From a bacterium (GTDB lineage Bacteria; Cyanobacteriota; Vampirovibrionia; Gastranaerophilales; JBAXKC01), in assembly GCA_037137535.1 (NCBI GenBank), contig JBAXKC010000008.1:26976-90975 (forward strand): a stretch of 64,000 bases of DNA, given 5' to 3'. Position 1 is the stretch's first letter. Every line of letters begins with the position of its first letter. Both the position numbers and the translations under genes were made by a program. Below are positions 29,857-32,802 of the stretch, piece by piece. The notes beneath the pieces are model-generated. The model did not search any database and was not told where the DNA came from. It worked only from the letters and a program-made list of their open reading frames with translations.

Positions 29857-30633
29857 ATGAAAAAGTCATGTTTTATCGAATGTTATTCAGGTGCTGCCGG
29901 AGATATGCTTATAGCTGGTTTTTTAGGTGCATTAAATGACAAGGATTATTTTATAAATGAATTAAGTAAACTTTCAATAAAAAATGAATTTGAAATTGAA
30001 ATCAAGCCAACCGTAAAAAAAGGGATTGCATCAACTAATTTTAACGTAATTATCAAAGAACATGATCATTGTCATTCTCATGAGCATAAACATCATCACC
30101 ATAGAGGTTTAAATGAAATAACTGAAATAATTAATAATTCAGATATTTCTACTGAAGCCAAAGAATTAGCTATAAAAATATTTATTAATCTTGGAGAAGC
30201 AGAAGCAAAAGTACATGGCACTACCTTAGATAAAGTTCATTTTCACGAAGTAGGAGCAATTGACTCAATTGTAGATATAGTAGGCTTTGCAATTCTATTT
30301 ACAAAATTAAAAATTGAAGAAGTGACAGTCTCTAATATAAATGTCGGAAGTGGTTTGATAAAGTGCGAACATGGTTTTATTCCTGTTCCTGCACCAGCAA
30401 CGCTAGAGCTTATAAAACTATTTAAAATGCCTGTATCTTCAATAGTTAATATTAAAGGTGAAACGCTAACACCAACAGGTGCCGCAATTTTGGGAACTAT
30501 CGCAACTGCATTTAATAACATTCCAAATTATGATGAAATTCAGACAATATCTTATGGTGCAGGAACTAAGGATTTTGAGGAAATTTCTAATACTCTAAGA
30601 GTTACGGTCGGAGTAGAAAAAAAAAACACTTAA
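29857..30633 (+). CDS. larC: Nickel-pincer cofactor nickel insertase, N-terminal part (LarC1)
   Basis: SGAAGDM, His-rich tract, HFHEVGAIDSIVDIVG, PVPAPAT and TPTGAAI. Confidence 0.92.
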   Translation: MKKSCFIECYSGAAGDMLIAGFLGALNDKDYFINELSKLSIKNEFEIEIKPTVKKGIASTNFNVIIKEHDHCHSHEHKHHHHRGLNEITEIINNSDISTEAKELAIKIFINLGEAEAKVHGTTLDKVHFHEVGAIDSIVDIVGFAILFTKLKIEEVTVSNINVGSGLIKCEHGFIPVPAPATLELIKLFKMPVSSIVNIKGETLTPTGAAILGTIATAFNNIPNYDEIQTISYGAGTKDFEEISNTLRVTVGVEKKNT

Positions 30634-31076
30634 TTAATTCAGTATTTGTTATTGAAACAAATTTAGACGATATTTCTTCTGAAATTATTCCTTATGTGAT
30701 AGAAAAATTAATGGAGAGTGGTGCGCTCGATGCGTTTATCACTCCTATTATTATGAAAAAAGGAAGACCTGCAAACAAATTAACTGTTTTATCCTATGAA
30801 AATACCTGCTCAATCTTAGAAGATATAATATTTAATGAAACAAAAACTCTTGGTCTAAGAAAATATAAAACTGATCGAATAATTCAAAATAGAAAAACAG
30901 AAATAATAAATATACCAGATCTTGGCGAAGTACGAATTAAATATAACCTCAATAAAAATGGAGAAATATTGTCTGCTAAACCAGAATATGAAGATTGCAA
31001 AAAATTAGCAGTTGAAACAAATCAACCCCTAATTAATATCATGACTAAAATCTCAAAAGTTATACAGAAAACATAA
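30624..31076 (+). CDS. larC: LarC C-terminal part (LarC2), joined to LarC1 by a -1 shift at the A10 run
   Basis: The -1 frame is open from 30591 and encodes ...VFVIETNLDDISSE...MKKGRP...TLGLR...KPEYEDC. The conserved ETNLDD motif lies upstream of the annotated GTG at 30696. Confidence 0.88.
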   Translation, partial: KHLINSVFVIETNLDDISSEIIPYVIEKLMESGALDAFITPIIMKKGRPANKLTVLSYENTCSILEDIIFNETKTLGLRKYKTDRIIQNRKTEIINIPDLGEVRIKYNLNKNGEILSAKPEYEDCKKLAVETNQPLINIMTKISKVIQKT

Positions 31077-31140
31077 CATAAACTACGTTAAGTTTGTTGT
31101 ATATCCATAAAGATAATCATACTTTTTACTTTGGGAGATA

Positions 31141-31171
31141 AACGCTCATTACGTTATTGTAATTGAGCGTT
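31141..31171. terminator. Hairpin directly after the stop of the 95-aa gene
   Basis: AACGCTCATTAC...GTAATTGAGCGTT imperfect inverted repeat between convergent genes. Confidence 0.55.
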
Positions 31172-31458
31172 TATGCAAAGTACTTGAATGAAGACTCAAT
31201 ATTTTTATCTACAACCTTTTTGGCTGATTCCAATTCAGTTTCAATCATTTTATGTTGAGCTTCAATTTGCTTTTGTTGTAGCTCTAATTGTTTATTCAAT
31301 TCAAAAACTTGTTTCTGAATATTATCATCATTCATAAAATTCTGTGCTTGAGCACTCAAATTCATCTCTTTTTGACAAATTCTTTGCATTTGAAACTCTA
31401 AAGTACTCTTTTGATCCGTTAACAATAGTACACGGGCCTGACCTGCTACTAAACCCAT
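31171..31458 (-). CDS. Small coiled-coil protein (MGLxAxQARxLxL.../...KKVVDKNIESSFK type)
   Basis: 95-aa Q/E/K-rich heptad pattern with a GGGGG SD. It resembles, from memory only, a Melainabacteria hypothetical family with conserved termini. Confidence 0.75.
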   Translation of the reverse strand: MGLVAGQARVLLLTDQKSTLEFQMQRICQKEMNLSAQAQNFMNDDNIQKQVFELNKQLELQQKQIEAQHKMIETELESAKKVVDKNIESSFKYFA

Positions 31459-31465
31459 AATTAGT

Positions 31466-31908
31466 TCCCCCTAAGACTCCCACGTCTTTAAAAACTATAT
31501 TCCCCAAGATAATAATTATAATTTTTTATATATATTGATAAATACCCCAATCCCCTAGACTTCTTTAAGTCATTTCAGATAATATTGTTTGGATTAATTC
31601 CTCCTTTCATCAAAAGATCCAAACAAATTGTCATACCCCTTATCTCCTAAATATCCCCTAAATCCCAAATTCTTTAAATTTCTATAAAAAGTTAACCAAA
31701 TAAATGTCCATACCCCTAAACTTCCTTTTGTAAACCATCCCCTAATTTTTTATAACATATTAAATATTTTTATAAAAAAATGTTTCAAACAAATGGTCAT
31801 ACCCCAGAACCTGCCTTTTATCCCTCCTAACTCTTAAAATAATCTAAATTTAAATATCATTATAATTTTCTAATTCACTAAGGCTTTATTTTCTCTATCC
31901 TTCTTGTT
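31466..31908 (-). promoter_or_regulatory. GGA-rich periodic leader or candidate sRNA containing three SD-preceded mini-ORFs
   Basis: 16 GGA on the minus strand versus 1 on the plus strand. The degenerate repeat AGG..GGGGT ATG rmm ATT TrT TTG has ATGs at 31800, 31711 and 31634. Two hairpins display GGA in their loops. Confidence 0.6.
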
Positions 31909-32061
31909 TCTGATTTATACCTTACATATATATAAACAATATATCGGATTAAAAATTGCTAAACATGTATATAATCTCTCCATGTATTGTAATATTTCTT
32001 AATATTTGCAAAAAACAATAATTCAACTTAAAATGTTGTTGTAGCTAACTTTTGGGGATTT

Positions 32062-32802
32062 TTGAATATGACTGCAAAGAAAATACTAAGTACATTAATA
32101 TTACTTACGGCACTAACAACAGCCTCTCAATCCTATGCGGGTGATAATACATATATACAAAATATGTACAGCAAACCCTTAAATCTTATTGAAAGTAGCA
32201 TACAGACTCAAAGAATCCCAGCAGGTACTCTAATAAATTTAAGACTTGAAACTCCTATAAATTCCTTAACATCACGCTCTGGCAGCGAATTCAACGCAAC
32301 AGTTATAGAAAATGTAAAAATTGGAAAAAAAGTTGTATTACCTATTGGGTCGCTAGTAAGAGGAATTGTCTGTGTATCGAAAAAAAATACATTTGTATCT
32401 CAACCTGGTTATTTAAGTTTAACTTTTGATCATGTAGTTACACCATTAGGTAAACAACTACCAATAGTTGTAAGAACAAACAATTTAAATGCAAATAAAG
32501 ACGATATTATCAAAGGTGAAGGCGGCTATTTCAGAGCAGTAAATAATCATTTTGAAAAGAGCATTGATATCCTTGATAATACAACCGTGTGGGGGTATAA
32601 AAAAGGGAAATCATTTGCTAAAGGGATACCTGCTATAATAACTACTCCTATATGTGCTTTAGGTGGTTCTGTATATGGAAGTTCTTATTTTGCATACAAC
32701 ACGTTTATGTCTTTCTTTAGAAAAGGTGACAATGTAATATTGAATCCAGGTCAAAACATTCAAATAATCTCAAAAGAAGATATAGATTTAGTATTAAATT
32801 AG
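32062..32802 (+). CDS. Secreted beta-rich hypothetical protein (TrbI/VirB10-like C-domain)
   Basis: Signal peptide, IPAGTLINLRLETPINS, LPIGSLVRG and a C-terminal KGDNVILNPG. Confidence 0.6.
   Translation: MNMTAKKILSTLILLTALTTASQSYAGDNTYIQNMYSKPLNLIESSIQTQRIPAGTLINLRLETPINSLTSRSGSEFNATVIENVKIGKKVVLPIGSLVRGIVCVSKKNTFVSQPGYLSLTFDHVVTPLGKQLPIVVRTNNLNANKDDIIKGEGGYFRAVNNHFEKSIDILDNTTVWGYKKGKSFAKGIPAIITTPICALGGSVYGSSYFAYNTFMSFFRKGDNVILNPGQNIQIISKEDIDLVLN

Follow-up and report, generated by a model that had tools for sequence, protein, structure and literature searches.

A G-rich tandem array in the probable leader of a Gastranaerophilales gene as a predicted decoy or multi-site target for a C-rich, sigma-28-type small RNA

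This report concerns a G-rich stretch of the minus strand, positions 31466–31908 of a 64,000-nt piece of a Gastranaerophilales genome (assembly GCA_037137535.1, contig JBAXKC010000008.1, positions 26,976 to 90,975; the whole piece is called the window here), which lies upstream of a gene for a protein of 95 amino acids (aa). We found that the G-tracts of this stretch are parts of a tandem array with three full units and one or two partial ones. Since these tracts can be accounted for, base by base, as the complement of a C-rich small RNA encoded in multiple copies in the same genome, we read the array as a predicted leader-embedded decoy, or multi-site target, for that small RNA, and give this reading a probability of about 55%. 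At the level of sequence, the link between the leader and the small RNA, which is new, of sigma-28 type and found across the order, is solid. Computation shows that the two are complementary and that this match is unique in the genome, that the small RNA is conserved and has the features of a gene, and that the array lies between a promoter motif and the 95-aa gene.

Both strands of 30900–32500 were read, and a recount bore out the figures of an earlier note made from the letters of this DNA alone. Within 31466–31908 the minus strand has 16 GGA motifs as against a single one on the plus strand, and 9 runs of at least four G as against none (12 and 0 for runs of three or more); the plus strand of the stretch holds 101 C and 23 G. 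GGGG tracts lie at 31805–31802, 31716–31713, 31639–31636 and 31548–31545, and GGGGG at 31471–31467, so that, counting the Shine-Dalgarno (SD) sequence of the gene at 31471, the tracts follow one another at 89, 77, 91 and 77 nt, just as had been claimed. Nine runs of at least four G were reached in 0 of 5000 mononucleotide shuffles and in 14 of 2000 dinucleotide-preserving shuffles (5.2 ± 1.4 runs per shuffle). By density of such runs the stretch ranks first among 58,272 sliding 443-nt windows, both strands considered, and it is the sole 443-nt window with nine or more of them in this 2.95-Mb genome of 31% GC. Elsewhere in the genome, G-runs are dense in coding regions and in an unrelated 106-nt tandem repeat, none of which shows complementarity to the small RNA. 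The GGA motifs exceed the mononucleotide expectation (8.6 ± 2.4, with 22 of 5000 shuffles reaching 16) but not that of dinucleotide-preserving shuffles (16.5 ± 2.4, with 1340 of 2000 reaching 16); the shuffle test of GGA enrichment that the earlier note had proposed thus reveals none beyond dinucleotide composition. Because GGA matches the dinucleotide expectation while the G-runs exceed it, the anomaly consists of the G-runs and a repeated 21-mer, and not of GGA as such.

This 21-mer, GGGGTATGACCATTTGTTTGG, was found at 12 sites in the genome when up to 4 substitutions were allowed: nine lie in a conserved element and three in the leader (with 1, 3 and 1 mismatches in units 1, 2 and 3, that is, 20, 18 and 20 of 21 positions matching), with no site elsewhere in the genome at that threshold. 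The nine elements, some of which are on other contigs, are about 150 nt long, and three of them stand in tandem with a period of 161 nt; an alignment of the nine shows about 75 invariant nt between diverging flanks. Judged by its layout, the element is a small-RNA gene of about 80 nt, read on the C-rich strand. On the strand opposite the 21-mer, each copy begins with a promoter-like TAAAGTTT-N11-GCCGATAA, followed after about 7 nt by a hairpin, GACCA-AACAAA-TGGTC, then by an unpaired AUACCCCAACCUCCUCCCCAAAGUCUGGUA, and finally by a GC stem and U-tract, an intrinsic terminator that is present in all copies and on the C-rich strand side only. The body of the small RNA contains an anti-AUG CAU, seven bases and an anti-SD CCUCCUCC, a predicted general 'anti-ribosome-binding-site' design. 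In the accessible text of PMC7286023, TAAAGTTT-N11-GCCGATAA is given as the FliA (sigma-28) consensus. Exact matches to this consensus number six in the genome, all of them in front of small-RNA copies, and the promoters of the remaining three copies are, by reading, one or two bases off it; FliA itself is encoded in the genome (247 bits), as are seven flagellin genes. A single copy, C8:7915, about 50 kb from the array on the same contig, has the loop AAATAAA instead of AACAAA, and the core of unit 2 (31696–31716) carries TTTATTT, which matches this copy.

A covariance model of the small RNA (R1) recovers exactly nine copies in the genome at 89–95 bits, with the next match at 23 bits, and has matches in 118 of 121 Gastranaerophilales genomes, mostly one copy each and up to six in other families; BLAST finds the element in 32 of 41 related genomes. 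By reading, all 23 distinct homologues keep a TAAAG −35, a CGA(T/A)A-type −10 and the terminator, while the sequence of the first hairpin varies among them. Searching four small-RNA loci against Rfam 15 gave no match at E ≤ 1 that covers the element, and sub-threshold Rfam matches on these loci and on the stretch (sbrA, snoRNAs, and Yfr10 on an unrelated terminator) were set aside as chance. A literature search turned up no work dealing with small RNAs in Melainabacteria or Gastranaerophilales.

The units of the array and the two hairpins associated with it are the following; the net cofold gain is that of the duplex after intramolecular structure is accounted for, and z compares the local alignment of a unit to the antisense strand of the small-RNA gene with alignments of shuffled sequences.

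31786–31835, minus strand: unit 1, antisense to the small-RNA body, 21-mer core at 31785–31805; duplex with the small RNA −50.5 kcal/mol, net cofold gain −36.8, z = 7.2
31693–31740, minus strand: unit 2, antisense to the small-RNA body, 21-mer core at 31696–31716; duplex −41.3 kcal/mol, net cofold gain −21.3, z = 4.4
31618–31665, minus strand: unit 3, antisense to the small-RNA body, 21-mer core at 31619–31639; duplex −50.3 kcal/mol, net cofold gain −38.2, z = 6.5
31585–31626, minus strand: 10-bp inverted repeat between units 3 and 4, from a repeat search and the minimum-free-energy (MFE) fold
31536–31583, minus strand: unit 4, partial and shortened (CUAGGGGAUUGGGGUAU); duplex of 31583–31536 with the small RNA −27.1 kcal/mol
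31443–31488, minus strand: proximal site with hairpin, SD and AUG, a weaker small-RNA site and possible CsrA site; duplex of 31488–31443 with the small RNA −27.8 kcal/mol

In units 1–3 the complementarity covers the small RNA from about position 9 to about position 50–60, which is the body up to the terminator stem, and in unit 2 it runs into that stem. Aligned to the antisense gene, the units match no further than the edges of the small-RNA body, with no significant extension into promoter or terminator. The G-blocks upstream of the core contribute 11–18 kcal/mol, and those of unit 3 were outpaired by only 5 of 500 composition-matched shuffles. Tandem Repeats Finder reported two short rows only on the stretch, with periods of 10 and 11, missing the 77–91-nt units because these are too diverged; a repeat search recovered them as 3 copies of 44 nt with 61–70% identity. 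Conservation among the units is uneven: the core keeps 18–20 of 21 positions, and the 44-nt units are 61–70% identical with insertions and deletions, which we take as a sign of selection or conversion acting on the pairing block. By reading, the palindrome GACCA-N6-TGGTC of the small-RNA hairpin is broken in all three units, and the complementarity to the small RNA is retained. Both hairpins of the earlier note are present, namely AAGAC-GUGGGA-GUCUU at 31488–31473, which precedes the SD UAGGGGGA (31472–31465) and the AUG (31458–31456), and the inverted repeat with arms at 31585–31594 and 31617–31626, whose loop holds AAAGGAGGAA and one arm of which lies inside the core of unit 3. We also asked whether the units, read on the plus strand, might be small-RNA genes that have diverged. 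They scored 9–18 bits, with the whole terminator part deleted and no FliA promoter (the best plus-strand covariance match in the window, at 31517–31576 opposite unit 4, reached 18 bits, again with the terminator part deleted), and on account of these low model scores and the deleted terminator part they were rejected as small-RNA genes.

The position of the array with respect to the gene downstream was assessed by comparison with relatives, for which two further features are needed.

31921–31959, minus strand: two-part promoter-class motif (GCAAT...N...TTGTTTATATATATGTAAG), found by alignment, presumed promoter of the 95-aa gene
31171–31458, minus strand: the 95-aa gene, encoding a predicted helical hairpin, the shortest of a Melainabacteria-specific family

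A conserved block, TTTAGCAA-TTTT...ATATATT-TTTATATAWATAAGAG, is present in 9 of 9 aligned orthologous intergenic regions from four families, and its distance to the ATG is about 75–95 nt in eight relatives as against about 440–460 nt here. Genome-wide, the motif GCAATTTT, 13–22 nt, TTGTTTTTATATATATAAG (also GCAATTTT...TATATAAG) occurs 63 times; 55 of these sites precede an open reading frame (ORF) within 600 nt, at a median distance of 33 nt and in 47 of the 55 cases within 80 nt, and the 462 nt found at the 95-aa gene are the second longest such distance in the genome. The motif looks like the promoter of an uncharacterised regulon. Other sites include C27:7498, C1:112488, C51:12416 and C8:51370, and the ORFs behind the motif are mostly hypothetical and often of low complexity. 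No terminator-like site was seen in 31000–32200 on either strand. Because the distance from motif to gene is enlarged relative to the eight relatives and no terminator stands between, the array is a lineage-specific insertion of about 350 nt into the probable 5′ leader of the 95-aa gene. We also tried a sigma-28 promoter for this gene, ACATGTTT-N11-TCCGATAT at 31941–31948, and dropped it, its CGATA part not being kept in orthologs and the block being part of another motif, one that is widespread.

The ribosome-binding site of the 95-aa gene is itself a predicted small-RNA site: the duplex predicted between the region around it and the small RNA has −27.5 kcal/mol, third among the 55 motif-bearing genes, and the −27.8 kcal/mol of the proximal site is reached by 3 of 800 random ORF starts (top 0.4%; background −12.4 ± 4.6 kcal/mol). 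In orthologs, judged by eye, pairing of the ribosome-binding site with the small RNA is plausible in the closest family and not evident in the others. A genome-wide target scan seeded on 7-mers and run blind to promoters returned C27:7547 (−36.2 kcal/mol) and C1:112581 (−35.3 kcal/mol) as the best trans targets outside the small-RNA loci; both are ribosome-binding sites, and both genes carry the two-part promoter motif of the 95-aa gene. The near-perfect sites there are CCAAGACUAUUGGGGAGGA and UUUGGGGAGGCAGGUU, and the proteins (417 aa and 189 aa, respectively) are low-complexity hypotheticals starting with MG.

We infer from these results that both RNAs are transcribed and pair in the cell, and that regulation would run as follows. 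The leader would be transcribed from the conserved promoter motif at about 31921–31959. Once sigma-28 switches on the late flagellar genes, the small RNA would accumulate from its nine genes, its single-stranded C-blocks would touch a unit's G-blocks, and the helix would then spread through the small RNA's 5′ hairpin as far as the 21-mer core, yielding duplexes of about 40–50 nt. The leader would titrate the small RNA, shielding its own weaker ribosome-binding-site match as well as other small-RNA targets; alternatively, or in addition, RNase III, which is encoded in the genome, may cut the long duplexes. Hfq was not found with PF17209 in this genome, which is 100% complete.

Several results weigh against a decoy or target function. 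The array is absent at all 14 orthologous loci examined (up to 600 nt upstream), which have 0–1 runs of four or more G and no GGA strand bias, and a metagenome scan with a 20-mer for closer relatives gave 9 matches, all of them in unrelated DNA of 51–62% GC. The sole, weak RNA support is one 161-nt metatranscriptome contig from the same sample on 31502–31662, which is unstranded, has a depth of 2 and comes from a run possibly containing DNA. No RNA contig lies on the coding sequence, the RNA runs leaving most of the region compared, the coding sequence included, uncovered and so giving evidence neither way. A simple sigma-70 scan found nothing on the minus strand, and a TATAAT at about 31514–31519 could in principle start transcription below the array. 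Pairing of the G-blocks outside the 21-mer is marginal in two units (equalled or bettered by 41 and 47 of 500 shuffles), and since it barely beats shuffles there, part of the pairing signal is composition. Finally, covariation support for the small RNA is weak (94% of cells paired, 3 compensatory cells, a score not above shuffles) because its helices are almost invariant, and RNAalifold on a MAFFT alignment recovered the terminator alone.

The absence of the array from orthologous loci would also be expected if it were a functionless, decaying remnant of an inverted, partly duplicated fragment of the small-RNA gene, its complementarity being a by-product of descent. Common descent of the units and the gene is indeed likely, because the alignments reach z = 4.4–7.2, and the gene is one that has been amplified in this genome, tandem triplet included; unit 4 even bears a weak, non-significant resemblance (z = 1.4) to the promoter part of the gene. 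What decay alone would have to accommodate is the contrast between the well-kept core and the rest of the 44-nt unit with its insertions and deletions, the persistence of G-runs in a genome of 31% GC beyond what nearly all dinucleotide shuffles produce, the loss of hairpin symmetry with complementarity kept, the stop of homology at the borders of the small-RNA body, and the presence of a top-0.4% predicted small-RNA site at the true ribosome-binding site of the gene. We therefore regard a mere remnant as rather unlikely, though to be taken seriously; should the array prove neutral, the small-RNA family and the promoter motif would remain as durable results.

The decoy or target reading also has to be set against readings in which the G-rich strand encodes something. 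The small-RNA loci could be type I toxin-antitoxin-like, with a small hydrophobic MTICLVY... peptide encoded on the G strand behind a strong SD, the C-rich RNA as antitoxin, and the units as decayed toxin starts or upstream ORFs. The G strand does show GGAGGAGG-N7-AUG followed by 15–23 hydrophobic codons in 7 of 9 copies, the three units keep an AGGAG-type motif and, about 9 nt further on, an AUG that opens a mini-ORF of 9–19 codons, and the loci are multi-copy and partly tandem, as Ibs/Sib loci are. The frame, however, is shifted or cut to 7 codons in the other 2 of the 9 copies, and in relatives it ranges, by reading, from 2 to more than 25 codons of unrelated sequence. The conserved letters of the peptide coincide with the hairpin and the −10 box of the small RNA, no conserved G-strand promoter lies upstream, and the RNA, unlike patchy toxin-antitoxin loci, is found in 118 of 121 genomes and mostly as a single copy, all of which makes a type I system very improbable. 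A type III system, which the earlier note listed as an alternative, finds no backing either: such a system would have short, nearly identical repeats and then a gene for a ToxN/AbiQ-type toxin, but the downstream gene belongs to no Pfam or NCBIfam family at cut-off, and the units of 77–91 nt are 61–70% identical.

Readings at the level of DNA, namely tandem SigB/SigF-type GGGTAT promoters, a GACCA-N6-TGGTC operator or G-quadruplexes, leave the 40–50-nt antisense match unexplained, and we consider them the least probable of all. GGGTAT is present four times, unit 2 has a GTTTAC 14 nt upstream at the spacing of the SigB consensus, several group-3-like sigma factors are encoded in the genome, and the small-RNA hairpin, read as DNA, is a palindrome with which each of the genes begins. 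The spacing of −35-like sequences is irregular, however, with only one of the four units fitting by eye, so that the tandem promoters suggested in the earlier note find no support, and the palindrome is the one broken in all three units. As for quadruplexes, also suggested there, no canonical motif and no relaxed one with G-tracts of three or more (loops up to 7–12 nt) was found, and the only candidates are two of two tetrads.

The partner that had been proposed for the stretch was CsrA, bound through GGA either by a CsrB/RsmZ-like sponge or by a repressed leader of the hag type. The check for csrA and fliW suggested at the time is positive: both genes are present and adjacent, with CsrA (PF02599, 83.3 bits) at C1:47184-47339. 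The flagellin leaders of this genome have a hairpin-loop AAGGA and an SD containing GGA, and a similar layout recurs at the proximal site, where the GUGGGA loop (predicted unpaired probability 1.00) is followed by SD UAGGGGGA; in addition, UAGGGGAU is found three times upstream. At four of these flagellin leaders (C44:15589, C6:77072, C44:13267 and C11:19609), short hairpins with a UAAGGA loop stand before an AAGGAG SD, as one would expect under FliW-CsrA control, and C11:19609 has a sigma-28-type promoter.

For the array as a whole, the signature of a CsrB/RsmZ-type RNA, many GGA motifs displayed in loops, did not hold up. GGA is no more frequent than its dinucleotide expectation, 9 of the 16 motifs are predicted to be mostly paired and only 7 of the 16 have an unpaired probability above 0.55, the leader has no excess structure (MFE −74.2 kcal/mol as against −74.9 ± 4.9 in shuffles), no Rfam Csr/Rsm family comes near threshold on the stretch, and no separate terminator lies between array and gene in 31000–32200. 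Nor is GGA enrichment conserved upstream of homologs, for at the 14 orthologous loci neither the sites nor an equivalent hairpin is kept, and the SD of the closest two orthologs, AGGGGGU, is without GGA; about two GGA per unit simply come from the complement of CCUCCUCCCC. In systems like that of Campylobacter, FliW takes the role of CsrA antagonist. Campylobacter CsrA is described in PMC4894983 as acting without antagonising small RNAs. We find CsrA control through the array improbable, and possible for the proximal hairpin and ribosome-binding site alone (31488–31466), where the likeness to CsrA-repressed hag/flaA leaders consists of a CsrA-FliW genome and GGA in both the proximal loop and the SD. 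From CsrB/RsmZ the array differs in its GGA content, pairing, conservation and lack of a terminator. What stands of the original sponge or multi-site leader proposal is a strand-specific, periodic G-rich element that is plausibly post-transcriptional; what is mostly unsupported is CsrA as its partner.

With a small RNA as the partner, the closest known counterpart is RosA of B. subtilis, described in the accessible text of PMC8216469 as a sponge of the C-rich RoxS and FsrA, about 229 nt long, with its own terminator, short G-rich regions and a tiny ORF, whose pairing is proposed to open up RoxS's 5′ stem-loop. As in RosA/RoxS (and RsaI of S. aureus), the leader has several G-rich regions complementary to the C-rich targeting regions of a small RNA, and as in the RosA setting no Hfq hub is involved, to judge from the PF17209 search. 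Unlike the stand-alone RosA, the sites here lie in a probable mRNA leader and are tandem repeats derived from the sequence of the small RNA; the predicted pairing spans about 40–50 nt including the 21-mer core, the two systems have no sequence homology, and ours is known from sequence alone. A second counterpart is CJnc190/CJnc180 of C. jejuni (PMC8687705), which likewise combines a small RNA and an antagonist RNA with extended complementarity and RNase III; that pair is cis-encoded, its members lying on the two strands of a single locus, whereas the sites described here act, if at all, in trans, being separated from the nine genes by 50 kb or more or located on different contigs.

The small RNA itself also has counterparts in kind, as sigma-28-dependent flagellar small RNAs are described in E. 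coli (PMC10578931) and, as CJnc170/FlmR, in C. jejuni (PMC11187230), both papers being accessible in part. Like these, the partner small RNA stands behind a FliA consensus promoter in a flagellated host, and by analogy it would be a late-class post-transcriptional regulator. It differs from them in being intergenic rather than derived from an untranslated region, in having nine copies, in its anti-SD and anti-AUG elements and in belonging to a different phylum, and the accessible parts of PMC10578931 and PMC11187230 describe no leader-embedded decoy array for their small RNAs. Among the E. coli small RNAs of this class are FliX, MotR, UhpU and FlgO. Taken further, and only tentatively, an order-wide sigma-28 small RNA of the Gastranaerophilales, which are non-photosynthetic relatives of cyanobacteria, may be buffered in this lineage by an array built from inverted copies of its own body captured into an mRNA leader, so that a small-RNA gene would have been turned into a sponge by natural means. 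The array would set a threshold that couples late flagellar sigma-28 activity to the GCAATTTT...TTGTTTTTATATATATAAG regulon, including the helical-hairpin family of the 95-aa protein. If the decoy or target reading is correct, the group would have its first candidate riboregulatory circuit, made up of a near-universal small RNA tied to the flagellum and, in one lineage, an inbuilt decoy; this would imply that sponges can arise by antisense recycling of a regulator's own sequence, and bacterial sponges, of which few are known, would gain a form that is embedded in a leader, has several sites and pairs in long duplexes.

The 95-aa protein downstream of the array is predicted to be a two-helix hairpin (predicted local distance difference test, pLDDT, 89.5), and profile searches of Pfam, NCBIfam and PDB found no relative of it; Foldseek returned generic helical hairpins alone, at E ≥ 0.19. 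Its family occurs in 119 of 121 genomes, a single genome holding as many as 37 matches, has open frames from about 76 to 729 aa, and combines an N-terminal helix MGLxxSQxRLxxLTxRKSDLEF and a C-terminal helix ExESVKKVxDKNIxxxFKxF with a highly variable middle, an architecture that recalls, by analogy, filament subunits. Paralogs in this genome include C9:24182, C9:26149, C62:8061, C15:44882/45683/46512 and C15:29917, several of them behind sigma-28-type promoters.

On the other side of the array lies one divergent neighbour.

32062–32802, plus strand: a 246-aa secreted-type gene with its own promoter-like site at 32006–32034

Because of this promoter-like site the array falls outside the transcript of the 246-aa gene. 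By eye, several orthologous loci have, upstream, a coding sequence on the reverse strand that terminates in a start codon, which suggests that the synteny of the upstream gene is conserved.

Two minor observations were made along the way. The nickel-insertion protein LarC (PF01969) is split in the window into 29857–30633 and 30696–31076, both on the plus strand, covering profile positions 2–236 and 264–374; in Lactobacillus, larC is known to consist of two parts that frameshifting joins. At C66:1-520 (minus strand) and C20:50450-50948 (plus strand), three or more tandem repeats, each about 106 nt long and together reaching the contig ends, follow a small gene (MARVLISMPEEFLSTIDEV...) that looks ribbon-helix-helix-like by eye; these repeats are not complementary to the small RNA and could be a repeat-RNA system, for example one resembling type III toxin-antitoxin loci.

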